Below, one piece after another: positions 7,956 through 28,700 of a stretch of 64,000 nt of DNA (position 1 is its first letter; every line of letters starts with the position of its first letter). The stretch comes from Psilocybe cubensis. Its lineage: Eukaryota. Made by a program: the position numbers and the translations under genes. The stretch lies in the NCBI GenBank assembly GCA_017499595.2, contig CM039002.1:2542001-2606000 (forward strand). Reading direction: 5' to 3'. The notes under the pieces were generated by a model. It saw only the letters and a list, made by a program, of their open reading frames with translations, ran no database searches and was not told the origin of the DNA.

Positions 7956-10219
7956 CTATGAACAGATGTTGGGGTACATTCGATCCGTGGGATCCTGGGG
8001 GATCCATCCGCCTTGCAATCCGCGTTGGTAACTCCACTCATCGGCATTCTCAGCCTAATAGAAGAAAATAGAAAATGTGGGTCAGCGATATGGCACATAT
8101 AGATATGCGATATGTGTGCAAAGCATGGGAACGAAGAAGAAGAAGAAGCCATCGACAACACATGTATGATAACGGAGTGTGTTAAAATTAAGTAAACGCA
8201 GCGGAGATTCCAGAACTTCCAATGTCCCGATAGAAACCCATTTAAGAGCTATCAATGTTATTGGGCACATCATACTCGCTCGCGGGAATGTTCAATGTCA
8301 GGGAAATTTTCTGAGATCCCATTTGACGCATCCGAATTGAAAGCTTCATCCGAATAAAGCAAAGAAAAAAAGAAACAGACGACAAACTACAGCGTAAACT
8401 CACCTTCCACGTCCAAAATATCCAACCCTGGACCGCTTCTCCAAGTTCGACTTGCACTTCCCAATACCTGAGGTAAGACAAATACACGATCAAAACGCAC
8501 AGTCAAATCAGAAAAAAAAATGATGACCGACTTTCTCAGAAAAGTAATGTAATCTTGACTCCATGATGTGTAATTTCCCGTGAAGGGTGCGCAACTTCCA
8601 TGGACTTGCGATGTGGGCCCGGGGAACCACGTCCCGTCCCAGCGTGCACCAACGTTGCGGCCATTAAGCCATTTTGCACAGTCGGTGATTGCGTTGGACC
8701 ACTCCCCGGAGACGGTCCATAAGTTGGATGAGGCGTAAGATGTTAGCGTTGGCAATGTGTTAGTGCAAACAAACTACGTTGTAAATTGGATGTTAGATAC
8801 ATTAAGAAACCACGACATAGAAAATCGGAGACGCACATCGATATGTTCATCAAATGTCCTGTTTAGTTCTTTATCGCTGAATACTTGATATTCGTGCTAG
8901 AATAACGTTCTAATTTAACCATATCATGATATGTAGTACGAAAGAGCTCACATAGTCCATTAGAACTCCGTGTCCTTGTGGTGGGGTCAAAAAATTCGTC
9001 CAGCTCTGATTTTGTCCTGTTAGCTGTATCCATTATGAACCACCGAGTGAGCAAAATTGCGCACCTGGACTCCCAAGAAAGCATCGCCAATCATAATACC
9101 CATCCCATCACCAGCCACATCCCTCACCGCGTCATACGCAGTAGTCCAAAAATTCTTCACCACAGATGCCCAAGCACTACTTGTAAAGCCCGCCGCCTCA
9201 TTTAGCAGCTCCAACACGCTGATTTGATTTCCCACCTCCTTAGCGAGAAACACCAGAGTGTCCACTGTCCGTGTGACGTTATCAGGGTTGGTGGCCCACA
9301 CAGGGTTGTTTGTCCTCTGCCCTGAGTTGTCAAATCCGTTTTGCGACCCTGGTGCTCCGTGCAGATCAGCAATCACATTTAGGTTATATTTCTCCGCCCA
9401 CGAGAGTGCTTTTAGAAAGTAGGGCCAAGCCCCTGTGACATAAGGTGCTGTAGAGGTAGATGTGGATGTGTCGGATGAAGTCAGGGGGATGGACCAATAC
9501 CCAATCGGTATTCTGGTAAATTTTAATGAGATTTCACACCAAGAAAGAGCTCTACCCCGTACATACCGAACGTGATTAAGCCCCGCCGCTGAAATTTGAG
9601 CGAAGTCGTCTTCCGTTATCCACTGTTCCGGAGTTAGTTCGGTGACAATCAACACAAAAAGTGCATCCTTGCCGTTTCCCAATGATTTTGAAGAATGTTC
9701 TGAGCGGTTTTTGAATCGAGAAGTTGCCCTAGAGTGAATTCGTCGATGATATTATCGTTTCCTGTACTTTCGAAGACACTCGGTGTTATCCAGGGCTGGT
9801 GAAAAAGTGACGTCAGTGACATGTTGAACGACCGCATCAATGGATTCACCTCCAATACCAACCACCCTCCGCTGACAGATTTATCAGTACACACAGTGTA
9901 TTCGTAAAGAGAAAACATACATATTGACACCCCGGATTGTGTCTGTACCATAATTGAATGGTGTCGGTGTCGGAGACGACGATGTGCCTGATGCCGTCTG
10001 GGTCGTACGTGCAGATGTTCGCGTCGTTGGTGCAGAAGTATTCGCGACTCCGCCAATACCTGTGTTCGAAGGTGGCTGAAGAACTGCTTGGTTCCGATGC
10101 TGCAGACGGCATTTCTGCTGCCTTGCCTCAACCACAGAGCCAGAGAGGAGCAAAATAGCCTCGAAACAAAGGCACATCAACCCTAACGGAAGAACATTTC
10201 TTGGTCTGATTTTGCGCAT
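7956..10219 (-). CDS. Glycoside hydrolase family 5 exo-beta-1,3-glucanase (Exg1-like) with an N-terminal hydrophobic segment and S/T-rich linker
   Basis: Motifs [45 protein letters not shown] (acid/base), GEWS (nucleophile) and GWIFWTWK. Final exon [22 protein letters not shown]...CS* (TAG at 7956-7958). Confidence 0.93.
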
Positions 10220-11046: not shown

Positions 11047-12651
11047 TTATAGCTTTGAATTGGCTACGGTAGGCGCATCCGAAACTTTGACCACTCTGAT
11101 GGCAAAGTTAATCAACGCAAAGAAGTTGCATATCACAAGAAAAGACTCACAGTTTGCCTGTATTCCCTCCGCTGAAAAGCATTGGCAGCGCTACAGGCGC
11201 CTGTTCGATACCACCTTCGACGATGTGGAATTTACGCTTAATGGCACCGCTGGCAAGATCCTTGCCAAGCTCTTCTATTGCTGTCGGATATTCAGAGGCA
11301 TAATCCATACTAAAAACATTGATTCAGTTTGTTGGATATACAATGGTATTTTATACTACGTACACAATGAAGCCTTGAATTTTGGCACGTTGGGAAATGA
11401 GGTTAAGATAGCTTTGCAGACCCTTTGGCTTGGGGGCATCTATAATAATATAAATCAGCAAATGCAGACATTTTGGTTCCAACGAAAACTTGCTGTAAGC
11501 AGATATAGCACCTGATATAACATTATTTCAGACAATTTGGTGGATCTTTAGAGATAAACATACCACAGAGGACGATTCGTGCGTCCTTATTCAGTCGAGT
11601 AAGGAGGAAATCCAGAATCTCACCTGGAAGTAAACTCGATCATTAGCGTATACATTACCTTTTCAGAAAAATCTCACATACCACCAACGTTATCGAAATA
11701 GACATCCAGATACCCAACATCTTTCTTCAGGTCATTGTAGAAGGTGGGGCTCTTGTAGTTGAACGCTTTGATGACCCCCAGCTCATTCTCCAGCCAACGG
11801 CATTTATCATCGCTACCTGCAATAGCGTATACCTTGGCCCCGGCAGCCTTCCCAAGCTGACATGCAATAGAACCAACAGAGCCTGCTGCTCCCGACACCA
11901 CAAGCTTCTCTCCCGCCTTCAGCTCACCAATCTTTTTGAGACCCTGAATTATGACGTATGAGTGTATGAACAGCAGGGTTGTCTTATTTACGTACAAAGT
12001 AAGCGGTCAGACCTATAAAACAAATTAGTTACAGGTTCGCAGTGACATGAACATGTATATGTACGTACCAGAACTTCCTAGAATGCCCAAGTAGTCGAGG
12101 GGCTCAACACCACGAGGGATACTTTGGACGACCCCGACAGGTCAGTCAAGTTCCAGAAAAGAAGTTTAATAGACTCACACAAGCTTGTCGACGAACTTGT
12201 CTTTTATAACAGCGAATTCGGTCATGCCTAGATGGAGAGTATCGTTGCGTTAGGACACACAGCACTGTAGTGTAATGGCAATGATTGCGCACCCCATGGC
12301 CCGCTCACATTATCTCCCACCTTGAAGCGGCTTCCTGGCCCAACTTCAATAACCACTCCGAGACCCATGGCACGCATAACCTATTCTCATGTTTCGAGTC
12401 AACCCAGATTAGCGTCTTTGGCTTTGACGTACCTCCCCAATCTGTACAGGCGGAAGGTAGCTTCTCACATCACGGATATAGCCCCTCATCGCGGGATCCA
12501 AGCTTAGCCATGTGCACTGGACGAGGACCTCGTTGTTTCCCAACTTCAAAGAAGAGAAAGGGACGATTTCTGTGCGAAATGTATCTGGCTCGATATCGCC
12601 TTCCGGCCGTGAGTTGAGTACAATGCGTTTGAACTGGGATGGCCGGGGCAT
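11047..12651 (-). CDS. NADP-dependent oxidoreductase (MDR superfamily, prostaglandin/alkenal reductase-like) with C-terminal SKL
   Basis: Motifs LSLDPAMRG, VVSGAAGSVGSIACQL, AGSDDKC and YFDNVGG. Last exon VVKVSDAPTVANSKL* (TAA at 11047-11049). Confidence 0.9.
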
Positions 12652-12876
12652 TTTGGCGTTATCAATGTAACAGTGGTAATGGAGAGAAATGGGGGTTGGG
12701 GGTTCAGTAGCGAGTTAAAGCTAAACAGGAGTACTGGCAACAGCTTTATAATGGTACAAGTTCAGGTTCTTTCGTCAGGTACAAAATGTTTACCGGTAAC
12801 TTCATTCCCGGATATCCTTGTCGGCTTCGTCATGTCCATAAGAACGCCCGGCTTCGTGTACCGCCGTGATTCAGGT

Positions 12877-13211
12877 ACTATGTAGCTTTAGCTGGTGAAG
12901 AGAGATTAAGAGTGTGATTCTCTCGCATTAGGTGAGAATAAGCAAAGGAGTGTATGTAAAGAATGTATGTAGCTAGCAACCTGATGTCAATGATATCAGG
13001 GTTTGGGTGGGGAGCACCACCAAATCTGTGAGAGTCTGAGGTCCACGGTGGTCAGCGGCTAGACAGGGAAAAACAGAACAAATGGGAGACCAACGTGGAA
13101 ATGCCGTGCGTAACGCTAAGACTCGCTGATTTTGGATGGTGCAACCAACTCGAAATGCGAGGGAATACTCCGTGAGGCTGTGGAAGAGTCCAAAGTGAGC
13201 AAGGACCCCCA
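12877..13211 (-). repeat. Ngaro repeat B2 (3' terminal)
   Basis: Matches 13446-13780 (offset 569). Confidence 0.95.
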
Positions 13212-13284
13212 GACTGCGGTAGGAGTAAGACCCAAGACACGTCGAGTGACTCAGATACTGGGTACAGAGGGATGGCGGGTGGGG

Positions 13285-13445
13285 GAAAGGAAATTTTCTT
13301 GGACGATCTAAGGGTGGATGCGTCCAAAAATTGTTGCTTCGTCTGTGTGGTGAGAGGGAAAGCGGTGTCGCTCTCACCCGCTGACTCAGCACATAGTAGC
13401 CGTTCAGCGATCGTAGCATTTCATTACACTTCACACTGAACATAA
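13285..13445 (-). repeat. Ngaro repeat A2
   Basis: Matches 18856-19016 (offset 5571) and directly abuts B1. Confidence 0.95.
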
Positions 13446-13780
13446 ACTATGTAGCTTTAGCTGGTGAAGAGAGATTAAGAGTGTGATTCTCTCGCATTAG
13501 GTGAGAATAAGCAAAGGAGTGTATGTAAAGAATGTATGTAGCTAGCAACCTGATGTCAATGATATCAGGGTTTGGGTGGGGAGCACCACCAAATCTGTGA
13601 GAGTCTGAGGTCCACGGTGGTCAGCGGCTAGACAGGGAAAAACAGAACAAATGGGAGACCAACGTGGAAATGCCGTGCGTAACGCTAAGACTCGCTGATT
13701 TTGGATGGTGCAACCAACTCGAAATGCGAGGGAATACTCCGTGAGGCTGTGGAAGAGTCCAAAGTGAGCAAGGACCCCCA
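13446..13780 (-). repeat. Ngaro repeat B1
   Basis: Matches 12877-13211. Confidence 0.95.
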
Positions 13781-13955
13781 AAAGACCAGAGTAGGAGGGA
13801 AAGCAATGCCCGACGACGCGTCGAGCGAAATGGAGGACTCCCACACATCAGGAGGCGGGCAATACACGGGGAAAGGAAAAAACGCGACAGAGGAAGAAAA
13901 CGTAGCAGGAATAGACACTCACGAGAAACACAAGTTCACGGGTTGGAACGTCAGT

Positions 13956-16900
13956 TCATCCCCGAACGGGCGGGATGTTGAGTGTAATGCGATTGAACTC
14001 CGCAAAACATGCGGAATTCTGAATATAAGGTGCCAGGACCTTGGCGTGCTGGCGGAGATAGTTGGCAAAGGCGTCACTAGACCAACGACCCAGTGCCTTC
14101 ACCACCTCAAAGGGGACCCCGCGGAGCAAATACTCCAACACCGCGCCAATACGCAAGCCATGTCCGTGCAGCGGTTCAAGACCTGCCGCTGCTGCCGCCT
14201 TCTTGATGCGATCCAAAAAGGCTGTTCTTGTGAGCGGCCGCCGTTTACCAGATGCCGCGTGTGTGTAAGAGAAAAGAGACTCATTGCTGAGAGGGGAGTT
14301 GATAAGAAAGTGGTTGGCGAGAGCGGCTTCGGGATCAGATGGGCCATCTTGACGGGCCCAATACACCTCCTCGCCATCCGTGGGTGCACACTTTGTGCGG
14401 GGGATGAAGAAAACGGTTGTAGCATTGCCGGCGCGGTCGGTTACATAAGAAATGTTGGACTTCTTCACATGAGCATCAGGGTCAAAGGAAGCGAGGTTGC
14501 GAACTGTGAATTCGCCCAGGCGTGCGGCCGACCAGAAAGTTGACGTCAGACAAGCAAAAACGGCGGCGTCGAGTGGGACAGCAAGGTCAAGATGAGTCCG
14601 TATCGAGCTGATAATAGAAGGAGTGAAAGGTGCCCGCTTGGGGCGACGAGAGGAACGAGGTGCAAGCTTCATGCCAGCGGCAAGGGCGGCATCCACTTCA
14701 AGCTTGTTGTACACAAGCTGATGCCCATGAAGTGTATGCCATGCACGAATGCCATAGAACATGTTAGAAACCTGCGCACCAGAGTACAGACCCGCGCACG
14801 AGGAGAGAAAGGCAAGGAGAAGGATGTTGGTTAATGGGCAGCGCTGTTCCTCGGGAACTTCACGAAGATCACACCAGACATGAAAAACAAGAAGCGCACT
14901 GCCATATGCGCTACTCGTTCCATCAGCATATCGAGCACCCAGGACAGTAAGAACGCAGTCTAGATCATGTTCTGACAGAGGAACAGCATGACCTGCAGCG
15001 TCGAAGGCGGTCCGCGACGTTGCTGGGACCCATTTGAGCAAGCGCTCCGCAGCTACACAGTGTGGGCGAAGTGGGGATGGAGCTGGTACCAGATCTGCAC
15101 GGTATGGACGGGCGCGACGTCGAGAGGAAGGAGACTTCGTGGGCAAAGCAGGTCTCAAAGGGGAAAGGAGAAGCGCACGCGAGCGACGGGGTGTGATGGG
15201 GTTACCCAGCACGGCTGTCCCAGTGCGGGCGATAGAGCTCAAGTTCGTCAACGAAGAGCCGCGCGTTAGTCGGCTCTCGCGATGGGCGATCAGCTGCTGG
15301 AACTCTGTGTTTGAGGGTTTGGCTAGAAAACGCGGCGGATCTGGTGGTGGTTGCAGCGGGGCTGTCAAAACTGACAATGAGGTCGTGGAGACACGAGGGC
15401 AAGGTACATGGTGGGAGAAGAAGCGACTGCGACGGATAGATGCCCCGTGAGGGGCCGTCGGCTGGATTGTCATCGGAGGGGACGTATGCTGTAAAGATGG
15501 ACTCATCGCGGTTGTTGCTGGAGAGAAACGCGAGTATGCGTTTGAAGACCGTGTTGACGGCTGGATTTCTGCTCCGCCGGTTCCACCAACCTTCAACAAC
15601 GCCCATGTTGTCTCCGTAGATTCGGAGGCGAGGGGTGTCTGGTGCAATGGCACAGAGTGTGTAGACAAGAAGCTCGAAGCCGACAGCTTCAGCCCATCCA
15701 ATATCCCGTTTGCCATTAAGGGTCTGCCATCCGGGAAGAAGGCACCATGCACGCCAGCGGTTTCCAATGACGATTGCGATGCCAAACCCAGAGCTGGCGT
15801 CAGAGAAGGCTCTGACATCAGTGACCGCAACCGGGACTGGGATGGGACGCGCGAGGATGGGTTGAGATAATTTTCCCTTCCACCACTCGAGGTCGGCAGC
15901 AAGTGATTTGGGTGCGTGGCGAAGAGCGAGAGGACGTGAACTGGTGGCAAATCCACGGAGCATTGCTTCAAATCCAGTGAGATACGCGCGTCCAGCGGGA
16001 ACCACACAGGTACAGTGGAGAAGCTTCCCATACAGTTTTTGGACGTCTTCGAGAGAATGTTGAGACGCAGACAACCACGCCGCAATAGCATCCAGGTATT
16101 TTGACTTCTTGCTGCCTTCAATGCACACTGTGCGAGTTTCAAGGCACCACCCATAACCTGTGAAAGTGGCATAAGATGAGAAAGGTATGTCTTTAGCAGC
16201 CTCCCATGGTGTCCCGGTCTCTGAAGAAATAGAATCGATATCTGCAAAGCAATAAGAAAAACGGCTATCCTCCAGGGACCTGGAGGAAACCTGAGAGAGG
16301 TCCTGCAAAGGAAAACGGCAATCATCATCAGATTCCTCAACCGTGCCATCCACCAACAAGCCTCCAGTATAAAACACCCGACCACCCGAAAACTGAGGGC
16401 CCGACTCAGCAAACCGAACCGCAGCGCGGGTACGCTGTGCATTGTACTGTAAAAGAAACTTGCGAAGAATGCGAATGAAAAGATGATCATCAACCCACTT
16501 GGTGATGGGGCCAATGCCACGGGAGCGAAACACATCCACTGTGGCATCTTGAATGAGGCCAAACACACCGCCGGATGGTGATGCCCCAAACGCGCCTCGG
16601 GTGTCAACGCAAAACTGGTCATCTCCAATGCGGACAGCAGCAGCAGGCCACTGCGAAGGATGCAGAGGTACGGTGCGGAAGGCCTCAGATACATCCCGCA
16701 CGGCAAGCTGTGATCCAGGTGGAAGACGGCCCAGAAGCAGAGATACAACCGAAAAGGAACCCCAGGTGCAAGGAAAATTGGAAGCACAGGTATATGAATT
16801 GATGGAAGGGTTGGGAAACGAGGAGGAAGGTGAGGAGGGAAAGGAGAAATTCTGAATGATGCGGAATTTTCCTGGGCGGCCTGGCTTTGGAATGATCGAG

Positions 16901-17381
16901 AAAGGAGAAGTTTGGAAAGGGCCGATGAGAGATTCAAGATCGGCCCTCGTGAAAGGACCAATATAACGACCTTTCTCGAGCTCGAGTGCAATAATGTCAT
17001 TGAACTCTTGTTGGAATTGCTTGACAGATGGGCGATTAGGTGGGGATTGAGTAATGGAAATAAAAGGAAAATCAAAAATGAAACCGTGTTGAAACCCGTG
17101 TACAAGAAAAGGGTATTTTTGGTGAAGGCCAGACTCGTCAAGTAAGCGCTTCCAAGTGGCAGCTGGGTAGAGACACTTAATTTGAGTGCGCCTGAGCTCG
17201 AGAGCATTTCTGGGCGCCATGGGTGAATGAACCACACCCTGAACAGCGGTGTCTGTCTCCATGGCTGGACTGTGTGCACCCTTGTGTGGTCTGCCAATCG
17301 AAGCAGAGGGTCTGGCGCGAAGATTTGACAACGAGTGTTCTGCCCTCGCGGTCTGCGAAGGACGGGTGACTTCCATCCCAA
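13956..17381 (-). CDS. Retrotransposon tyrosine recombinase (recognisable domain about 13956-15150; upstream part overlaps RT/RH in another frame)
   Basis: Catalytic signature intact: SAARLGEF (R), PRTKC (K), GHGLRIG (HxxR), GRWSS (W), ANYLR (Y). The true start is unknown; the ORF begins at TTG. Confidence 0.9.
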   Translation of the reverse strand: MGWKSPVLRRPRGQNTRCQIFAPDPLLRLADHTRVHTVQPWRQTPLFRVWFIHPWRPEMLSSSGALKLSVSTQLPLGSAYLTSLAFTKNTLFLYTGFNTVSFLIFLLFPLLNPHLIAHLSSNSNKSSMTLLHSSSRKVVILVLSRGPILNLSSALSKLLLSRSFQSQAAQENSASFRISPFPPHLPPRFPTLPSIHIPVLPIFLAPGVPFRLYLCFWAVFHLDHSLPCGMYLRPSAPYLCILRSGLLLLSALEMTSFALTPEARLGHHHPAVCLASFKMPQWMCFAPVALAPSPSGLMIIFSFAFFASFFYSTMHSVPALRFGLLSRALSFRVVGCFILEACWWMARLRNLMMIAVFLCRTSLRFPPGPWRIAVFLIALQISILFLQRPGHHGRLLKTYLSHLMPLSQVMGGALKLAQCALKAARSQNTWMLLRRGCLRLNILSKTSKNCMGSFSTVPVWFPLDARISLDLKQCSVDLPPVHVLSLFATHPNHLLPTSSGGRENYLNPSSRVPSQSRLRSLMSEPSLTPALGLASQSSLETAGVHGAFFPDGRPLMANGILDGLKLSASSFLSTHSVPLHQTPLASESTETTWALLKVGGTGGAEIQPSTRSSNAYSRFSPATTAMSPSLQHTSPPMTIQPTAPHGASIRRSRFFSHHVPCPRVSTTSLSVLTAPLQPPPDPPRFLAKPSNTEFQQLIAHRESRLTRGSSLTNLSSIARTGTAVLGNPITPRRSRALLLSPLRPALPTKSPSSRRRARPYRADLVPAPSPLRPHCVAAERLLKWVPATSRTAFDAAGHAVPLSEHDLDCVLTVLGARYADGTSSAYGSALLVFHVWCDLREVPEEQRCPLTNILLLAFLSSCAGLYSGAQVSNMFYGIRAWHTLHGHQLVYNKLEVDAALAAGMKLAPRSSRRPKRAPFTPSIISSIRTHLDLAVPLDAAVFACLTSTFWSAARLGEFTVRNLASFDPDAHVKKSNISYVTDRAGNATTVFFIPRTKCAPTDGEEVYWARQDGPSDPEAALANHFLINSPLSNESLFSYTHAASGKRRPLTRTAFLDRIKKAAAAAGLEPLHGHGLRIGAVLEYLLRGVPFEVVKALGRWSSDAFANYLRQHAKVLAPYIQNSACFAEFNRITLNIPPVRG

Positions 17382-17637
17382 ATGCGCGGGAGGCGACAGG
17401 ATCGAAAGTCGTGGGAACGGCGGCCCAAACAGACAGCGCAGGCGGGCTCCGATGCTGCGCCGCTCCGAAAACCCTGAGGCTGCTTGTTGTTCTCGCGGGG
17501 TTGGCGGTAGGGAGAAGGAGATCGACGACGTTTGGAGTCACGATGATTGCGAGGAGGGCTGTCAGAGCGCATATGGGACTGAGTGGAACGTCCCGACCGA
17601 TGGGTGTCTGCTCTGTCGTGAGACCCACCCCATTTTG
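15202..17637 (-). CDS. Ngaro pol: reverse transcriptase + RNase H
   Basis: RT motifs SPFSIIPKPG..KFRIIQNFS, DVSEAFR, FGASPSGG and WVDD. RNase H motifs FSDASS, AEAVGFE, GDNMGVV and NPADGPSRG. Confidence 0.93.
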   Translation of the reverse strand, partial: QNGVGLTTEQTPIGRDVPLSPICALTALLAIIVTPNVVDLLLPTANPARTTSSLRVFGAAQHRSPPALSVWAAVPTTFDPVASRAFGMEVTRPSQTARAEHSLSNLRARPSASIGRPHKGAHSPAMETDTAVQGVVHSPMAPRNALELRRTQIKCLYPAATWKRLLDESGLHQKYPFLVHGFQHGFIFDFPFISITQSPPNRPSVKQFQQEFNDIIALELEKGRYIGPFTRADLESLIGPFQTSPFSIIPKPGRPGKFRIIQNFSFPSSPSSSFPNPSINSYTCASNFPCTWGSFSVVSLLLGRLPPGSQLAVRDVSEAFRTVPLHPSQWPAAAVRIGDDQFCVDTRGAFGASPSGGVFGLIQDATVDVFRSRGIGPITKWVDDHLFIRILRKFLLQYNAQRTRAAVRFAESGPQFSGGRVFYTGGLLVDGTVEESDDDCRFPLQDLSQVSSRSLEDSRFSYCFADIDSISSETGTPWEAAKDIPFSSYATFTGYGWCLETRTVCIEGSKKSKYLDAIAAWLSASQHSLEDVQKLYGKLLHCTCVVPAGRAYLTGFEAMLRGFATSSRPLALRHAPKSLAADLEWWKGKLSQPILARPIPVPVAVTDVRAFSDASSGFGIAIVIGNRWRAWCLLPGWQTLNGKRDIGWAEAVGFELLVYTLCAIAPDTPRLRIYGDNMGVVEGWWNRRSRNPAVNTVFKRILAFLSSNNRDESIFTAYVPSDDNPADGPSRGIYPSQSLLLPPCTLPSCLHDLIVSFDSPAATTTRSAAFSSQTLKHRVPAADRPSREPTNARLFVDELELYRPHWDSRAG

Positions 17638-18801
17638 CTAGCGCGTCGGACTGGACAGCGAGTAAAGCATAAACAGCAAAGTATAAGGCATAAAGCGGAA
17701 AGCAGGGTGCATGGTTGGGGAGAGTAAGGGTCGAGAAAATAAAGCGGCGGTGATAAAGCGGCGGGGGGTAAAGCAAAGAACGGCAAGCAACGAGCGTAAA
17801 GCAAACGGCGTGTAAAGCAATATGTGTGATGCACGGGGGAGCAGAATGAAAATAACAGCGGGTTAGTTTGATACACTACTGAGAAAGAGAGGAGCACGCA
17901 CCCTCGCTAGTTCGTATTGTGCATCTCTGGCATCGCGGTCGTCGTCTATAACCTTGGCTTTGATTTTCCTGTACAGCTCGTCGCTGAAGCCCGCCAGATC
18001 CCAGCCTCCTTCACCGGATGCAATGGAGATATGCCAATCCTTGCGAATACTCTCCTGGTAGGTAAAAAGCGCGAGGCGATTGAGGCGACCAGGGTCAAAA
18101 CGCGACGAGTGGTTCTCGATGCCTTCGAAAAAACCAATGAACATGAGAACACGTTCGGCTGGCCAGCCGGTGCGGCGAATCGCAGTAATAAATCTGGCAG
18201 TGGCAACATGAAATTCCTCCCACGTCAAGTCTTTATCCGGGACGACGCTGCGTGAGTCTTTAGTTACAAGAGAAGGAACAAACGAGGCAACCCCAGATTT
18301 CCAAACAATGGACATGGATTCGTCGGACGTGGCGGCATGGGCGCTAGCACGGGCGTCTGCAACGCCGGCATTTGTAAAGTACCAAAGTTCGACGTACTTG
18401 GCAGCGTCTAGACGGCGAAGGGCGGCGGGGTTGATGACGACAGGGAGGTCAACCGGGATTGGGCGATCAAGAACAGGGCAAAACTTTGCTCGGTTCTTTT
18501 TCACTTCCTCCAAATGGGCAGCCTCTGCATCTTGTTTGAGAAGCTGTGCGGCCTGGTCAGCCGCTTCCTTATCGAGGCGCGCGCGTTCCTCGGCCCTGGC
18601 AACCTCGTCTTCGCGCTGTGCTTGCCACGCGGTTTTTTGAACCTCGTTCATGGCGTGCCATATAGCAGTCAGCGCCGCTACGGCTTGTTCGTCGGTGGCG
18701 CCCGGGACGGCAGTTTTGTGGGCGTCGCGAACGGCTTGAAACGCAGGGAGCGTGTAATCCGGAGGGACAGCGTCCGTAGGATCGTCTACAATGCGTGCCA
18801 T
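17177..18801 (-). CDS. Ngaro gag-like protein, two exons (18801-17902 and 17650-17177), with C-terminal Cys/His zinc fingers
   Basis: Exon 1 MARIVDDP...YVELWYFT...QYELAR ends at donor AG|GTGCGT. The phase-0 acceptor CAG at 17653-17651 joins SDALAKW...CAVCLGRRSHDFRSC...CFDWQ...CSGCGSFTHGAQKC. Confidence 0.8.
17651..17901 (-). other. Putative spliceosomal intron within Ngaro gag (251 nt)
   Basis: GTGCGT donor at 17901, CTAAC at 17866-17862, no AG dinucleotide from 17875 to 17653, then CAG. Removing it restores the frame. Confidence 0.8.
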
Positions 18802-18855
18802 GGCGGGAAATTTTTTCTGAGAGGCCGATTTACTGAGTTCTGACGAACAGAGACT

Positions 18856-19016
18856 GAAAGGAAATTTTCTTGGACGATCTAAGGGTGGATGCGTCCAAAA
18901 ATTGTTGCTTCGTCTGTGTGGTGAGAGGGAAAGCGGTGTCGCTCTCACCCGCTGACTCAGCACATAGTAGCCGTTCAGCGATCGTAGCATTTCATTACAC
19001 TTCACACTGAACATAA
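18856..19016 (-). repeat. Ngaro repeat A1 (5' terminal)
   Basis: Matches 13285-13445. Confidence 0.95.
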
Positions 19017-19727: not shown

Positions 19728-22700
19728 TCAAACCTGCATACTTCCATTGTTGCCTGGGGCGTGCTCGAAAGTTGCGATGGTAGGCTTTTCCTGCGATGAA
19801 GTGTCGGCAAGGTCAACCATGCTCTGAACACTATGGCGTCTATCTCCATTGTTTTGTTGGAGGGTTCGGCGGTGATTTGCGTGGTGGTTAATAAATTCCA
19901 ATCCTCCTGAGCTGACAGCTAAGGACATAATTTCTAGTGAGATGCGAAAGACGGTAGGTAAACAAGAAAACTTACGTCGGTCTGAATCGACAATGAACAA
20001 TTCATAGATGGTTGCACCCAAAATGGTGGCTGGGATGTTGACCAGAGCTGCAATGGCGGAATAAGCTCCTCCTTTGGCTATTCAAAAATCATTGTTAGAG
20101 GGTAATTTCACTGGTTTGTAATGTTTGATAATTTACCTTCAACTCCATAGATAGTCATCGCTGCCAAACGCGCGCCTACATCACGGGCGGCATTCAATGA
20201 CACTGAGGAAAATAATTAACTTTTTAGGCAATTTATGTCAGACGCATGCATGCTCACCTCCTGGTACTGAAAAGCCCCAGATAGATGCAGCACTATAGGA
20301 GACGATCAGGCCTGATATTATGAAAATGAAAATTGTGTAGGGAAGGGGGCGAGTTCGAGAGAGGACAAAGTAGCCTGAGTACGGACAGAGTTTTGTAGAT
20401 ATTTATGTGTTTAGCACGGAAAGAGATGGGAAAAAAATAGGAAATATGATTCGATACGTCCTTCGGTGTGTAACGACGTCTCCGGTAAGGTGCTAACTAC
20501 TGACTACGCGTCTATGCTGTGGCCATATGGCGTCGACGATGCCAAGTGAGTGTGTCCGCAAGCGTCATGTGACGTGTTTGTTGTGAGTCGCGTCGCGCGC
20601 ACGCGTATCCAAATCCCTACATCTCCCCCCCACTTTAAATTTCAGGCTCCTGGCTGAAATTTCGGTTTCGGTTTCGAGTCTACATCCTGCGGCCCACTCC
20701 CTAGTGCTATTCGTGATATGGATCCATCCAGTCACGACCTGATATGTGGCCTGCTCAAGACCCAGTCTCAAGTGGCCTCTATCACCTCCTTTCCTCTCTA
20801 TTCGGTCAGTCCTCCTCCCCTCGCCATTCATTCTTCCTTCTAACTCTCTAACTAGCTCTCTCCATTGTCTATATGCCCTCGCTCGTCGTCTCTCGTCTCC
20901 GATCTCACTCAATATCTTTTCTCTTCCAAATTTCTCTTTCCCTCCTCCCCCCTCTTTCACACCTCCTCCCCCCTCTTTTGCACCATCGCCCGCTCGCTAT
21001 TCCTCGTCGCCGTCGAACTCCTCGCTGTTTAGGACCTCCGTGACCTCGATGACCTGTCGATTCCGCGGATAATAGGGAATTAAACGAAATGCTGCGTATT
21101 TCAGCTTTGATTCAGCTCCATCGAGTTCTGCCAGACGGTATGAACCTCCTTCGGAGCGGCGTACGACGACAAGTGGTCCCATGTATCTCGGCTTGCCCTT
21201 CCTTCCCACTTCAGCCTCGACCTTCTTGTTCAAGACGAGCACTAGTTCTCCGGGTTGAAAATTATAATCAATGATCTTATGTTTGTTTTTCTCTTCAAAT
21301 TCGGCAATGGACTGATATCTTCGCTTTAGAACACGTTCGTGGACCAGGGCTAGGTCGTCGTCGCGTCGCTCAAGTTGTCTTGCGCGCATACCGAGGAGTT
21401 CAGCGGTTGAAAGCGAACGGTCGATGTCCGGGAGTAGGAATGTTGCGTGAGTGAGGTCAAATGGTAGGAGCGGCTCGATTCCGTGCACAACATAGAATGG
21501 TGAGTACCCGATTGATTTCCTGATTGTAATTCGCTCAGCCCAGTACATGAATGCTACCCTCTCGTCCCACTTTTTCAAGGACCCGTCACCCGACTTGATC
21601 AGCGCTGTACGAATTGGGGTGTGCGTTGTTTCGACGACACCGTTCGCTCTCGAATTATAGCCAGAAATTCGAATATGGCTCACGTTGTATCGCTCGGCCA
21701 GCCATTCTAGTGCCGCCACGAATGGAGGTCCGTTATCCGTTATCATCTCAAATACTACTCCCCACCTCAACATCAACTTCATTAGAATGAAATTGCCTAT
21801 CACCGCCGCCGTCTCCGTCTTCAACTTATCCCATTCTGGCCATGTCGACATCCCACATCTTGCTTGGACAATATATTTGTACCCGTTTGAGGGTGGCATG
21901 TGCATTGTGTCGATATGGCATCTGCAGAACAGCCTTTCGGGTATCATTACGGTAGGTGGGATTACAACTTTCTCGAGCGACATCAATTGACATTGGTGAC
22001 AGGTGTCGATGAACCATCGAATATCCTTATCAATTTTTGGCCACCAGTAGCGATCGGCAACGTTATGGCGAGTCGCAAAGTACCCTCGATGACCTAACAT
22101 GTCATGTCCTTCGACTAGAACCTCAAGCCGGTCTTCTCCAAATAGCACGAGCTTGTGACGTATGCCGCTATCTCGACGCCATAATCTGTTCGCCTGGACA
22201 AAGAACCGACTGGCCTTCTTCACAAATCTCTTCAGTGCAACCCTATCGAGATTTGGTGGTGGTTTCAGTGTCTCCAGGTAAGTCTTGATTTGCATGAGCT
22301 CGTCGTCGAGTTGTCTGACTTCCTCTGTGTCTGGTAACCCTCCCTTTTCTGTCGCTTCCGCCATCTTTCTCTTGAATGCTGCTACCACTGCCTCCTCCAC
22401 ACTCATCACTTCTCCCTCTTTCGCTCCCTCGCTAATTTTAACCCCTGGTTCCTTCACCTTCACATCCATTCCTACTGCACCCTTCCCCTCGCTTCTCTTG
22501 TTCTTCCCTTTTAAACCTCGCTTTCCTATCCTCGGCCATTGATCTCCCTTCTTCCATCCCATTCCTGCCACTATCCACACCCCACATTGATACAACTCCT
22601 CCACCCACTGTTCTGCATCCTCCTCTGTCTCGTCCTCCTCGCCTTCAACCTTCCGCCTCCGTGACAACCCATCTGGACCCTTGAAGTTCTTCCCAGGGAC

Positions 22701-25700
22701 GTGGACCAGCTTGAAATCGAACATCAGAATGGCAGCAATCCATCGGTTCATAGCTGCGTTTGGATGCGTATCAGGGTTATTGATCATACCCTTGATATAT
22801 TTTGCGTCCACTTCGATGGTAAGATTTTGCACCCCAACAATCCAAATTTTGACTGAATGAATTGCTCGAAACAGGCCGTATAATTCCAGCTTTGCCTGCG
22901 AGTAGCGAGCTTCTCGTGGGTTCCATGGTATAGAACCGAACCGTGCAATTATACGTGCGCCGTTTGCATCCAACTGCATGAGAATGAAACCAACTGCAAT
23001 GTTTGAGGAGTCAACTTGAAGAATGACCGTAAAGCCACTCTTGTAATCGATGGGGCGGATTGCTGGGCATGTCGTGACCGCAGTCTTCAGTGAATTCATT
23101 GCGTTTTGATGTTCCTTGTCCCATTTAAACTGAACTTGCTTCTTCGTTAGGTTGACCAATGGGATTGCAATCGCCGCAAAGTCCTTCACCCACTTCCTCA
23201 CCACACCCGCCACTCCTAGAAAGCTTCGCACGTCGGTCGCGTTTTCGCATGGTGGCCAGTTCTCAATTTTTATCACGCTCGACTTATCCGGTTTACGCCC
23301 TTCGTATGTCGATATCTGTCCCACTATCTTTGCTTCCGGCTGACACAAAATCAGTTTCTTCGCAGATGCTGTGGCGCCAGCGTGTGCTAGTCTGTGAAGA
23401 ACTCGATTCACGTCCATCAGGTGCTCCCACACAAACCTCCTCACTCCCGGATTCTCCTCCATCACCTCATAACCTCCGCCCGCCAACTCATACCTCGTCA
23501 TTGGACCCAGGACCGCTATGTCATCGGAAAAATTCGGTGCAACTTCTGTTTCGTGTTGTAGGATGAATGCTACATCACGATGGAAGATTTGCAGCGAGTT
23601 TGTCCAACCTTGAGGCAACACAGTAAGCTGGTATGTTCCCGTTGGTGTTTCAAAGGCTGTTAACTCTCTCGACCGTTTGTCCAGCGTGTGGTGATCGTAA
23701 CCCACGAAAAGGTCAATTGTTGTATAGATCGAGCGGCCGGCGCATTGCTCAGCATACAAATCAATCAATGGTGGTTGCGCAGAGTCTTTGATAGTGACTT
23801 CATTAAGCGGGACAAGGTTGTGCACAATGCGTAAGTCTTTTGATCCTTTCTTCTCGAACGTGATTGTTGCATGCCGATATGCACTTGTCGTAGGTTCTAT
23901 GACACCAGCTTTTAACTTTTCGTCGATGAGCTTGTTGAACCGCTCTCGCAATGCTGGTGGAACTGGAAACGAGCGCTTTACCCAAGGTTCATGTTCGACG
24001 ACCGGTATGACGACATCCGAGAAGTAGTCACTTCGAAATCTTCCTTTCTCAGCTTCCACCCATGCCAAACCTTTCTCGTTTGCTCGTAACACCGCCGCCA
24101 CCACTTTCTTCTCTTCCTCCCACAAAAAATCATTCTCCTCCACTCCAAGCATCTTCCACCTCTCTTCTGTCAACCTTTCTCCTGGCTTAAATGGCCCTGG
24201 CGTCATTGGTATTGTCGGTAACGTCAACAGCGGGTCCTCTGGAAAGCGACGTTGAACATTCGCATATTCTGGCATTGTTGTTGCAACCGGGTGAGTTTTC
24301 TTTGCTGCTGGCTTATACAACAATGTGTGCTGAACTTGATCATAGGTGAATGTTGATCCTAGAAGCTCATTTGCGAGTTTTGTACGAGCTTGACTGTGCG
24401 CCATCATTACCACCTCCTCCACACTCAATTCCACCACCTCCTCTCTTGGTTGCTCTGCTCTTGCCTCCCTGTACATCAACACCTTCTTCACAACCTTCCT
24501 CGCTCGCTCTCTTGTTGGTATAACCTTTGCTTGACGTTGGTCTTTAGGATCGTGCACAATCACATCTACCCGCCCATCGTTATGCTCAACCTTCCCTAGC
24601 CTCACGTACTTTTGCCACGGTCGTCCCAACAGCAACTCGAATGGGGCATCGAGAGGTGCGATGAAAGCGTGTACCATTGATGCAATGCCTCCGACCTCAA
24701 TCTCCATAAACTCGGCACATCCTCCCATCTCCTCCTTTTCGCCGGTCGCTGTTTCCATTGTCATTTGTTGCTCTTTGTTGACGCTGTGCCCTGTTCTCTC
24801 CCACAAGTCTTTCCTTATCACCACAATCTCTGACCCTTCATCTAACAACCCGACCGATGCAACCGTCCCGCATACAACGACATCAATTTCCCGAAGTGGT
24901 GTACAGTATTCGAGTGTTGGCATCTTGAAGGTAGCCGCTCCTGTTGTTGCTGTCGTTGCTGACTTCTTTTCTGTATCCAATAGTGAGGTTTTGGGGAATG
25001 CCTCGTTAGGTACTCGCACAACCTTGAGTTTCTCAACCATTGTTTTTCGTACGTCCCCGCTGAGTGCGTAAATATCGCCGACCGTAACCTCAGGTATAAT
25101 AGTTTTGAAGATTTTCTCTGCCATCTTCAAAGCCGCTTTTGGATCAGATATGCTGGACTCGTATGTGTATGCTTTCTCGTGTCCTCCTCGCTGAATGGCA
25201 TTGGGATCGAAACGGATGTGTTTGATGTCAGTGTGGTGTCCTTCTCCCTCCTCCGCCCTTGCCTTTCCTTTTCTCTCCTTCATCTCTCTCTCTATCCTCT
25301 TTTCCTGCTCCTTCCTCCCGCTCTCCTCATCATCATCACCCGTCTTCTTCCCGCTTCGTGTCTGCAGCAATGCCTCCGCTGTGGCCACCTCTTGCCATGC
25401 CATCCACTCCACTTTGCCCTCGCTTTCGTACCCGTTCTCCCATGGGATCTCCTTCCACTCGTTTCGCACTTCCTCCACTGTTTTCTTCCGCCCGCTACTT
25501 GCTTCCACTTTCACTTGTTCTCCATTGCGCCCTGTGGTGTATGTCTTAGCGTTTCTGGTAGTCTGCGTATAATAACCGCTTGTTGCAACATTGACATGTG
25601 GTGGTTGATCCCTCTGCCACCCTTCTTGACCTGGGGTTGGAACTGCTGACCCGAACCGCTTATCAACAGCGTCCTTCAAACTCTGCCCATATTCAAAACG

Positions 25701-28700
25701 GATAGGCTCTCCGTTTGCATATGTCAATCGAGCTGGAGTTCCAAACCACATGATGCGGCCAACTTTAACGTATTCGGCTGCGGCTACACAGTCACGTATG
25801 CGATGTTGTCCTTTTTTGCAGAAATAGCAGCTGTTTGAACTTGGGCCTGACATACCCGCCTGGGCGTATTGTATTGGTGGTGGGATTTGCATTTGCGGAG
25901 CGGCGAATGTTTGTGCCTGCGTATGATAAGCCTGAGTTTGATACGTTGGTGCAAATTGTGGCTGATAGGGTGCGTGTACTGCCATGTTTGTTGCTGCCGC
26001 CTGCTGAGTTGTTGCCAGTAGTGTTGGTATCCAGATATGCGCGTTTGGGTCCATAGCACAGAGTTGACCGTAGGTTGCAGCATAATTTGCGTCGCCAACT
26101 TTCAATCCTGCTAGCTTGCGTGTCAAGTCACCAATATCCTCTTCTCGAGTCTTCTTCTTTGGTTCGCCAAATGAGACTCGTCGAGTTCGCACCACATCCT
26201 CCTCCTCTTTCACCTTTGCAATCTCCTCTTCCTTCCGCCTCTCTGATCTTGCCCTCAACTCCGCCAGCTCTCTATCCTTCTCCCTCTCCCTCTCCCTCTC
26301 TTTTTCTCTCTTTTTCTTCTTCTTCTCCTTTGCATCCCGTCGCTTCTCCTTTCTCCTCCTCTTCCTCCTCTCGTCCTCACTATCTGACGATTCAGTGTAT
26401 GATTCTGATGTGTCCGATGACACAGACTCGGTTTCTGACTCGGTTTCTGAATCCAATGATGAATCCGATGAGCTGCTCTCATGTTTCTTCTTCCGCCGCT
26501 TTTCCTTCTTCTTCAGCTTCTTCTGTGCCCTCCTCAACTTCTCCTCTCGCTCAGCTCTCTTCCCTTTCCCTACATCCTCGTCTAATAACAGCCTCGCCGT
26601 TTTCAACACATCCTCCACCGCTGGAGCTGCCATCCTTCCCGTCAACCCTATTTTCTTCCCCCCCATCTGCACTTCCACCCGGTCTTGAAGGCGAGGCGGT
26701 AAGCCCATCCAGAAGTACTCGTTCAATTCGTCTTCAGTGATCTCGCCTTGTTTGACTAGCCAGAGACCAATTGGTTCAAAGTTTTTATTGTACTCGGTGA
26801 GCTCGACACTGGTCCTGATGCCACTGCCCTTTGTCGCTTTGGCAATCACTCTCGTCAAGTCGTCCACCGTGTAACTCCCACCCTTTGTCATCCACGGATA
26901 TTCCTCCTTTAACTTCTCCTTCATTGCCTTGAAGCTCCGTGGTCGGTCCAATCGGTAACCCTTGAAAGTTTTCCAGAACTTCACATCTGACTCTTTCCTC
27001 AAATAGTCCACCACTGCCTCTGCCATCATCTCGTCATTTAACCCCGCCGTCTTTGCTAACCTTTCGAACTTCCCCAGAAAGTCCTCCAGCTCATCTACAT
27101 CTCCTGACCAGCTAGGTGCTTTACTCGAGCCCGGCGCTGGCATCTCCTTCAAAAAGGTTGTCGTCGATCCTCCTGGTTGAACCATGTTGTTATTTGTCTT
27201 TGGTGCGTCCTTCTCTTCTTTCGATTCTTCTTTCTTCAATTCTCCTGATTGGGATTCGGGTATAGGGACTTGTAACGACTTTGGTTCTTCTTTGTTGGAT
27301 GTCTGGCTGTCTTGTTTAGCTGGAGCTGGTACGTCGGTTGCTTTGAACTCGTCTTGCTGTTGCTGATCTTCTTCGTCTTGCTTCGTTTCTTCTCCTACTT
27401 GCTGTTCCTTGTTAACGTCTTCTTTGTCTTCTTCTCCTGATTCTGACCTTGCCTCCGGCGACTCAGATCTGATAGATCTTGGTGGTGGATCTGATTCCTC
27501 GTTGAAATCGAGTTCTGGTAAGAAATCGCCGTCCGATGTTTGCCACTCTTTGGCGCTATCAAATTCGTCTTCACGAGGTTCGTCAACCGGCTCTTCAATC
27601 GACGCTAGTCGTGGTACACTTGGTGGTGTTGCAACAGACCACGCTCCTGGGAATGTACCTTGTGGAAATGAGAACCGATTGAATAACGGTGGTGGTGCGT
27701 GTCGAAACGAAAATTGGGTTGGCGTAGGTGTGATAGGGTCAGTATTTGGTGCGTTGACAGTGAGCTCGTTAGCGTCCTGTGGACTAACAGACGCAGATCG
27801 CTCCCTATAACTGACAGGTGCAATGTTGCGGCGATTTCGAGGTGCTTCCGAGGTGGGTAATAACGAGTTAGAACTGCTGGCTTTCGACGATGGTTTGTAC
27901 TCAGATTCGTCGTCCTTTTTCTTCCCTTTCCTTGGAGCTAACTTGGGTATCACTTTCCCAGAAGAAGATCGAATTCCCGAGCCCTTCTTGAGAAAGGAGC
28001 CTCGAACCGGTTGGGATGTCGAACTTCCGCTGTTTGAGGCAATATTGACAGTTCCTCAGTGACACGGGGTTTAACGGACAAGGGGGCGGGCAAAACCGGT
28101 TTTACTGGTTTTGTCCCCTCGCGGTGGGCTCCAGATGTAGGGAAGGGGGCGAGTTCGAGAGAGGACAAAGTAGCCTGAGTACGGACAGAGTTTTGTAGAT
28201 ATTTATGTGTTTAGCACGGAAAGAGATGGGAAAAAAATAGGAAATATGATTCGATACGTCCTTCGGTGTGTAACGACGTCTCCGGTAAGGTGCTAACTAC
28301 TGACTACGCGTCTATGCTGTGGCCATATGGCGTCGACGATGCCAAGTGAGTGTGTCCGCAAGCGTCATGTGACGTGTTTGTTGTGAGTCGCGTCGCGCGC
28401 ACGCGTATCCAAATCCCTACAATTGAAAATACTGACTATGCCAATGCGACAACGAAGGTGCTCATGACTGGTGGTACCAAGATATTCGAAGGGTCAAGGC
28501 AGGACCAGATGATCATTGCAATGAGGGTGCACTGGAAATGCATCTAATAAGCAACCAAAGAATTCATTCAATATAACGAGTTACTTACGTTGACGAACTC
28601 ATTCATAAATGTGCGGGAAAGAGATAGCCCAGGGAGACTGTACAATGCGAATGCACCGGCAGGACCGTTGGGGGTGAATTGGGTCGCGGCTAATGTTCCG

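Follow-up and report, generated by a model that had tools for sequence, protein, structure and literature searches.

How does a retroelement that crowds a structural protein and two enzymes into overlapping reading frames express all three? The question is raised by a Ngaro-type tyrosine-recombinase (YR) retrotransposon on the minus strand of the window, a 64,000-nt stretch of Psilocybe cubensis contig CM039002.1 to which all coordinates refer unless a relative is named. The gene for its structural protein, gag, is interrupted; the pol frame encodes a reverse transcriptase (RT) with ribonuclease H (RNase H); and a third, very long frame ends in the recombinase. All three reading frames are open within about 110 nt of the acceptor of the gag intron. 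To our knowledge, how DIRS, Ngaro and PAT elements make their enzymes from overlapping open reading frames (ORFs) has never been settled. The sequences give good support to a real and conserved spliceosomal intron inside gag, and they make ribosomal frameshifting a likelier route to the enzymes than a second acceptor of that intron, which an earlier note on this DNA had proposed as a switch.

The intron within gag

The first exon of gag (17902..18801, minus strand, as are all features described here) opens at ATG 18801-18799 and runs for 300 codons (MARIVDDPTD...DAQYELAR), which encode the N-terminal Gag domain; the homologues P0001, P0002 and P0004 show 29-36 % identity to it. The exon ends in the context GCG AGG/GTGCGT, with the first G of the intron at 17901 and the donor in phase 0. 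The intron (17651..17901) is 251 nt long, or 2 mod 3, and has the donor GTGCGT, a branch motif, CTAAC (17866-17862), 36 nt from the donor, an AG-free, pyrimidine-rich tract of 209 nt (17861-17653) and the acceptor CAG (17653-17651). The second exon (17177..17650; 157 codons and a stop at 17179-17177) reads TCC GAC GCG..., or SDALAK...CAVCLG...CSGCGS..H...C, and encodes a basic linker and two zinc knuckles. Pfam searches with the two exons returned nothing significant. Removal of the intron joins ELAR to SDALAK and gives a Gag protein with the layout of P0002, a contiguous Gag of 463 residues whose C-terminal half is matched by exon 2; unspliced RNA, read as mRNA, meets a stop 12 codons into the intron. 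The arrangement directly implies that splicing at the first AG would be needed to join the Gag N-terminal domain to the zinc-knuckle domain. The earlier note had described the phase-0 donor and the joining of the first acceptor to the zinc-knuckle exon, and both were found at these positions; its view that unspliced RNA serves as the genome also holds, since every genomic copy retains the intron and the RNA template that is copied must therefore be unspliced.

The DNA of relatives came from the gag alignment, which led to four loci on metagenome contigs, three of which (L001, L002 and L003) span the intron region; it gave no loci in the viral or genome contig collections, and the pol alignment gave none in either. 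The gag2 regions of these three loci are also matched by exon 2. Two reasonably intact elements could be compared at the DNA level, the window copy and L001. L003 is a decayed copy, its gag interrupted by stops and its pol and YR by frame breaks, and was excluded from arguments about frame.

The donor lies in phase 0 at the same aligned Gag residue in all four elements for which there is DNA. The donors of the relatives are GTCAGT (L001), GTAAGT (L002) and GTTTGT (L003), and their branch motifs are CTAAC at 42 nt, CTAAC at 37 nt and CTGAT at 37 nt, respectively, so that a CTRAY 36-42 nt into the intron and a YAG at its end (TAG in L001, CAG in L002 and L003) are found in four of four. The tract between them is free of AG in three of four: it measures 131 nt in L001 and 212 nt in L002, while that of L003 (147 nt) has one AG inside. 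Mononucleotide shuffles reproduced such AG-free tracts in 394 (window), 121 (L001) and 3 (L002) of 20000 trials. An alignment of related elements, the check that the earlier note had asked for, thus finds the donor and the first acceptor kept in 4/4. The intron lengths, by contrast, are 179 nt (2 mod 3) in L001, 255 nt (0 mod 3) in L002 and 190 nt (1 mod 3) in L003. Because the frame offset varies among the elements while the splice signals persist, splicing, not frameshifting, restores Gag; with lengths of 2, 2, 0 and 1 mod 3, no single frameshift could replace it. Protein sequences agree with the position of the junction. The Suillus gene model P0001 continues at the same residue with V (GTN) and then with residues of the pyrimidine tract. 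P0002, which was ORF-called from two short contigs, contains both Gag domains, separated by a linker of 96 residues, against 92 predicted here.

The build of the intron is unusual, with a branch motif near the donor and some 200 nt without AG after it, and it fits selection of the first AG from a distant branch point. Other introns are known to have AG-exclusion zones where the branch point is distant, and to follow the rule that the first AG is used; as in those, the gag intron has its first AG far behind the branch point and, as in tandem acceptors, a second AG close by. Such an intron is likely to be spliced slowly, which would suit an element that keeps part of its RNA unspliced.

Two further features of these introns were observed. 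Three of the four have an AG between donor and branch motif, 22 nt past the donor (at 22 and 25 nt in the window, 17880-17877; at 22 nt in L001 and in L002). The intron of L002, a multiple of three at 255 nt, is free of stops, so that spliced and unspliced RNA would both give a Gag-like product.

The pol and recombinase frames

The pol frame (15202..17637) lies +1 relative to gag exon 2. It measures 811 codons from stop to stop, where the earlier note had counted 808, and its conserved part begins at about codon 140 (ATG 17220-17218). That note had also seen no ATG near the start of the frame; this is correct for the first 87 codons, but an ATG is present at codon 88, and again at codons 126 and 140, the last of them directly ahead of the conserved RT part. 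Pfam and PDB sequence and profile searches with pol returned nothing significant. Its identity rests on an AlphaFold model (built on 10 relatives; pLDDT 81.6), which Foldseek matched to the reverse transcriptases of foamy virus, MMLV, Ty3, CaMV and HIV (E 9e-12 to 1e-7, probability 1.00), and two sources name pol relatives 'reverse transcriptase ribonuclease H'. A phmmer search found 4290 relatives, of which 150 were listed and compared. Two possible signs of translation upstream of the conserved part were considered and dropped: a pol-frame similarity from residue 55, which has 26 % identity with gaps and lies under conserved Gag motifs, and the openness of the pol frame over exon 2, which shuffling shows to be at chance level.

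Proteins that combine the N-terminal Gag domain with pol make up 11 of the 150 listed pol relatives. They were found by way of pol; among 8000 candidates there had been no protein of more than 531 residues with the N-terminal Gag domain. Four of the fusions are single ORFs that translate the pyrimidine tract, beginning with V: P0110 (Agrocybe pediades) and P0072 (ENA), P0047 (JGI) and P0069 (Logan), the last three being ORF-called from contigs. In five others (P0005, P0007, P0008, P0026 and P0042) the frame switches at differing places, and these switches look like the choices of gene predictors.

The recombinase frame (13956..17537) is 1193 codons long from stop to stop and lies -1 to gag exon 2 and +1 to pol. 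It overlaps the whole RT/RNase H gene and carries a match to Phage_integrase (PF00589) at 14058-14288 (E 3.8e-07; 30.5 bits against a cut-off of 27.1). Over pol it has no stop, whereas 6.7 +/- 2.0 would be expected in the window and 12.8 +/- 2.2 in L001: with synonymous codons shuffled so as to keep the Pol protein, zero was reached in 0 of 2000 trials for each element, and with codon order shuffled in 0 of 5000. Neither gag exon 1 nor the recombinase's own region shows a comparable depletion of stops. The recombinase frame of L001 (7154-8809) is open to the end of its contig, and the long overlapping ORF is present also in Taiwanofungus, Ephemerocybe, Schizopora and metagenomes. Among 21 long recombinase proteins of relatives, seven consist of the overlapping frame plus YR, two switch from pol into that frame, 11 are pol-YR fusions and one holds YR only. 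Selection against stops would mean that ribosomes read the YR frame from upstream of pol, which fits an entry point in exon 2.

A candidate recoding site and the alternatives

Some 180 nt past the start of exon 2, CAG GGT TTT CGG is read in the gag frame, and the run G_GGU_UUU_CGG (17465..17474) is a candidate recoding site in that frame, in which a -1 heptamer (17474-17468) overlaps a +1 motif, UUU_CGG (17470-17465). A GC-rich hairpin (17430..17467) follows directly, with an inner stem of 8 bp placed 5 nt past the heptamer. No canonical -1 heptamer other than G_GGT_TTT occurs among the first 500 nt of exon 2; it stands in the gag frame and leads to the YR frame. In L001 the -1 frame opens exactly at such a heptamer, G_GGA_AAA (7154). 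The +1 motif of the window, TTT CGG at 17470, has TTT CGC as its aligned counterpart in L001 (7176), and in both elements the pol frame is already open ahead of it. A TTT CGC in Agrocybe, 6 codons upstream, was deduced by comparing the two frames of P0005 and P0110. At the protein level, 7 of 11 Gag sequences have an F-R dipeptide 10-17 residues ahead of the first zinc knuckle, in a linker that is otherwise unconserved and basic.

The hairpin region of the window (68 nt, 17467-17400, the hairpin being its first 38 nt) folds with -23.7 kcal/mol. In L001 the value is -37 kcal/mol (z -3.24; one in 200 shuffles folded as stably) and the spacer is 3 nt. In the window and in L001 (7164-7228) alike, the codons for Ala-Cys-Ala-Val in the first zinc knuckle carry the 3' arm, and where synonymous codons differ between the two sequences compared they are paired by matching changes in the 5' arm; an RNA structure may be conserved here.

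The available part of Nibert et al. 2016 (PMC5052127) gives UUU_CGN as the +1 frameshift motif of plant amalgaviruses and likens it to that of influenza A PA-X. The candidate site in gag resembles it in having UUU and then CGN in the upstream frame with the downstream gene in +1; it differs in that the same U-run is also part of a -1 heptamer.

These features can be assembled into a mechanism. Ribosomes translating the spliced mRNA would change frame at G_GGU_UUU_CGG, some 180 nt past the start of exon 2. Those that slip by +1 on UUU_CGG would enter the RT/RNase H frame; those that slip by -1 on the heptamer, aided by the hairpin, would enter the recombinase frame of 1193 codons. The products would be abundant Gag and rare Gag-RT/RH and Gag-X-YR proteins, all sharing the Gag N-terminus. 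As a whole, the combination of gag intron and exon-2 frameshifting is the best explanation that we can offer, although our confidence in it stays somewhat below even; the recoding step, taken by itself, is held just as tentatively. A fuller version appears doubtful to us. In it, a single start codon would serve all proteins, the slow intron would set the balance of genome RNA and mRNA, and the one slippery run would send ribosomes three ways; the -1 frame, some 1170 codons that overprint the whole RT/RNase H gene, would be kept free of stops by selection at synonymous sites, and occasional use of the TAG acceptor, or translation of a retained intron in relatives, would provide extra routes into the pol frame.

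Several observations weigh against frameshifting in exon 2. No transcript, junction read or peptide was seen for any of the products; two small sequencing runs with the same species label shared 0.00 of the words, and none of their contigs could be placed on 15100-19016 at 80 % likeness. The window hairpin is no stabler than its shuffles (z +0.23 and +0.98). Slippery heptamers (three) and UUU_CGN (one) occur also within the pol of the window, so that one such motif is in itself nothing rare. In the alignment, 21 nt separate the heptamer of L001 from that of the window, which places them on different codons, and the Agrocybe codon aligned with the window site is UUU_CCC, its UUU_CGC being the one 6 codons upstream. 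Constraint on the protein could account for the conserved F-R dipeptide, and the -1 product would carry about 750 residues of overlapping frame ahead of the recombinase, which is costly. Only the two reasonably intact elements have DNA, and L001 has a stop in pol. The latter element also shares an AG at +13 in its pol frame, and the TGA that blocks this frame could reflect decay of a CGA; there is another pol stop in L001, a TGA at 8068-8070 where Agrocybe has Arg, but decay is the less likely origin of the blocking TGA. Finally, gag exon 1, intron and pol form one ORF in four relatives (P0110, P0072, P0047 and P0069), which point to translation of a retained intron, a route that the frameshift model does not need.

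Of the alternatives, entry at internal AUGs near the end of gag survives best, although we consider it unlikely. Pol and YR would then be made by reinitiation, by leaky scanning or from a subgenomic or differently spliced RNA, starting at the pol-frame ATG of codon 140 and at a YR-frame ATG (17207-17205), both upstream of the gag stop. The conservation of pol does start near the first of these (ME..AL..RR), the likeness to L001 upstream being weak (26 % with gaps) and resembling a by-product of the conserved Gag frame (SASIGR under LCFDWQ). By eye, a Met is found at that place in about 10 of 15 fetched relatives, but L001 has none at either place. Similarly, four of the relatives listed (P0015, P0035, P0048 and P0154) begin exactly at the codon-140 site, and the ORF-called YR-frame proteins P0165 and P0169 begin at a Met aligned with the YR-frame ATG of the window; the starts chosen by an ORF caller are, however, no evidence of initiation. 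To reach the two AUGs, ribosomes would have to pass many others over some 1.6 kb from the 5' end, and both AUGs precede the gag stop by 28-41 nt, a greater distance than in the cases of termination-reinitiation known to us. Initiation there would also account neither for the absence of stops from the YR frame over the roughly 330 nt that precede its ATG nor for the openness of that frame across pol.

The model of the earlier note, in which tandem 3' splice sites 13 nt apart set the ratio of Gag, from CAG, to Gag-Pol, from minor use of TAG, appears improbable. Its observation stands in part. The TAG (17638..17640) is in phase with the open pol frame: it is the second AG after the 209-nt AG-free zone, the sequence behind it reads CAA AAT GGG... 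(QNGVGL...) and the frame is open from 17637 to 15202. The same TAG is, however, the stop that bounds the pol frame, and it joins exactly because gag exon 1 and pol belong to one genomic frame, interrupted only by the TAA at 17865-17863 (in ACTAAC) and by the TAG itself. This sharing of frame extends to L001 and to the four relatives with uninterrupted ORFs, and can be counted in favour of the model. By chance, the next AG would be in phase about one time in three, and codon shuffles of exon 2 lead one to expect 0.7 stops in the +1 frame against the one observed, the TAG itself, so that the openness is no more than chance.

A functional switch between Gag and Gag-Pol found no support in the relatives. 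The earlier note had named homologues lacking a second acceptor in the pol frame as evidence against its proposal, and the site is not conserved as a usable acceptor in the three relatives that could be examined. The AG of L001 is at exactly +13 and in its pol frame, but it is of a weak type (GAG) and is followed by TGA 9 codons on; the first AG giving an open pol frame there is the fifth, at +46. L003 has no AG at +13. The pol-frame protein of Agrocybe pediades (P0110), the closest relative with usable data, reads through the intron and exon 2; between codons -60 and +24, counted from the start of exon 2, it contains neither K nor Q nor E, and therefore no in-phase NAG exists in that stretch. 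Residues 1-33 of the pol frame are aligned by none of the 150 listed pol relatives, though seven carry upstream sequence. On the other side, in the Hermanssonia model P0007, which is a computed one, gag exon 1 is joined to the pol frame at a point some 50 codons ahead of the overlap with the zinc knuckles (68 here), so that an in-phase AG with an open frame exists there. Alternative acceptors also fail to explain the stop-free recombinase frame, because its first in-phase AG lies 188 nt past the first acceptor. The TAG may be used occasionally or at a low level, but it is not supported as the switch by which the family reaches Pol. Tandem alternative acceptors, of the NAGNAG type and wider, are well known, and in the known cases they add or drop a few residues; we know of none in which an offset of 13 nt swaps whole reading frames of a mobile element.

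Translation of a retained intron is far less probable. Here the unspliced RNA would be read from exon 1 through the intron into pol and the spliced RNA would give Gag, and the product of the window copy, after read-through of two stops, would hold intron-encoded peptides VRAPLFLSSVSN... The four one-ORF relatives and the frame shared by exon 1 and pol in the window and L001 speak for it. Against it are the in-frame stops, namely the TAA and TAG already described in the window and three in L001, and the fact that the window copy bears stops despite 100 % identical repeats and intact ORFs. Pyrimidine-rich introns are poor in stops in every frame, so that open ones are expected occasionally, and the sample is biased, since only open cases are visible as fused proteins.

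Equally remote is a gag without splicing, whose pyrimidine tract would be a spacer or be translated and whose zinc-knuckle ORF would be translated alone or by a frameshift from exon 1: the exon-2 frame is open back to 17875, with a 12-nt overlap with the end of the exon-1 frame, and in L002 the whole stretch is one open frame, but the offset of the gag parts varies (2, 2, 0 and 1 mod 3), donor, branch motif, AG-free tract and YAG are kept, and P0002 joins both domains by an ordinary linker of the predicted length, not by translation of the pyrimidine tract.

The element, its surroundings and known systems

The whole element (12877..19016) measures 6140 nt, as delimited by its repeats and ORFs, and has the order A1 - gag - RT/RNase H - YR - B1 - A2 - 73 nt - B2. 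The split direct repeat A1 (18856..19016; 161 nt) is 100 % identical to A2 (13285-13445), which lies directly after B1, and B1 (13446..13780; 335 nt) is 100 % identical to B2 (12877-13211), as seen in blastn self-hits. The element is present once in the window. Its ORFs are those for the Gag N-terminus (ATG 18801) and the zinc knuckles and the frames of 811 and 1193 codons. Three features that characterize Ngaro elements are found: split direct repeats A1 ... B1 A2 B2, a definition taken from the accessible text of PMC13465315; a tyrosine recombinase downstream of RT/RNase H, from the Phage_integrase match; and an RT with RNase H, from Foldseek on the AlphaFold model. No methyltransferase, protease or DDE integrase was found in the element. 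Pfam gave no family between RNase H and YR, and hence no methyltransferase match, which is weak evidence as Pfam misses the RT too. Judged from its sequence, the element is an intact, young or recently inserted Ngaro-type retrotransposon.

Its relatives come from Agaricomycetes, including Agrocybe, Panaeolus, Trametes and Hermanssonia, among others. L002 (141-1718) is a gag-only relative, with no pol homology in the 1 kb downstream, and may be a non-autonomous or domesticated gag. In a Psilocybe cubensis gene model, P0003 (JR316_0006475), the last 60 residues are 89 % identical to the start of Gag (18810-18620) and the sequence upstream is unrelated; the model is probably a chimera that was annotated across a related element.

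The same strand also has, about 2 kb upstream of the Ngaro element, an uninterrupted frame of 2352 codons (20997-28055); by eye, its product resembles a polyprotein of the Ty3/gypsy type, with gag, protease, RT, RNase H and integrase. Some 160 nt downstream of B2 an intron-containing host gene begins (11674-12714, same strand), so that the element sits in its upstream region. It contains MPRPSQFKRIVLNS... and a GAAGSVGS nucleotide-binding motif, and reads like a medium-chain dehydrogenase/reductase.

An excess of Gag controlled by splicing is reportedly found in BARE and in Drosophila copia. In the accessible part of Oberlin et al. 2017 (PMC5580714) such control is described for Ty1/copia elements, namely Arabidopsis EVD and its relatives. 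The likeness to the present element is that one transcript is used both spliced, as Gag mRNA, and unspliced, as the genome. In copia, however, the intron removes pol from a single gag-pol ORF, whereas here it lies within gag and its removal completes Gag; the unspliced RNA here would make neither full Gag nor, in the window copy, Pol.

The element shares with the Ngaro elements of fungi, as presented in the available portions of PMC3783388 and PMC13465315, the order gag, RT/RNase H, YR, the split direct repeats and a distribution of relatives in Agaricomycetes. It differs by its gag intron: the strings 'intron' and 'splic' are absent (0 occurrences) from the available text of the Ngaro survey by Muszewska et al. 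2013 (PMC3783388). The literature searched described no gag intron or splice-based frame switch for Ngaro or DIRS elements; a mention in Goodwin and Poulter 2004 is possible. The second difference is that the recombinase ORF overlaps the entire RT/RNase H ORF, while Ngaro elements are usually without ORF overlaps according to the consulted portion of Piednoel et al. 2011 (PMC3266345). That portion reports a long pol/YR overlap for half of the 28 DIRS1-like elements studied, all five from fungi among them. As in those, a long recombinase ORF covers pol and has its catalytic domain in the non-overlapping 3' end; in contrast to the present element, they have inverted repeats, a methyltransferase and YR upstream of pol, and no mechanism of entry is proposed there. 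The overlap described here runs from the zinc-knuckle region of gag across all of RT/RNase H. An overlap of YR and pol is thus known in the sister group and apparently has not been noted for Ngaro.

For the biology of these elements, the arrangement would have several consequences. With copying confined to unspliced RNA, the intron would survive retrotransposition, whereas complete Gag would come from spliced RNA only, and the recombinase frame is held open across 2.3 kb of another gene. The layout also explains the many inconsistent Gag-Pol and Pol-YR fusions that gene predictors produce in annotation. If the intron and the recoding site are both real, they would represent a new way for a retroelement to set the ratio of structural protein to enzymes, and the gag intron would be a natural fungal example of an intron with a distant branch point and an AG-exclusion zone of 200 nt.

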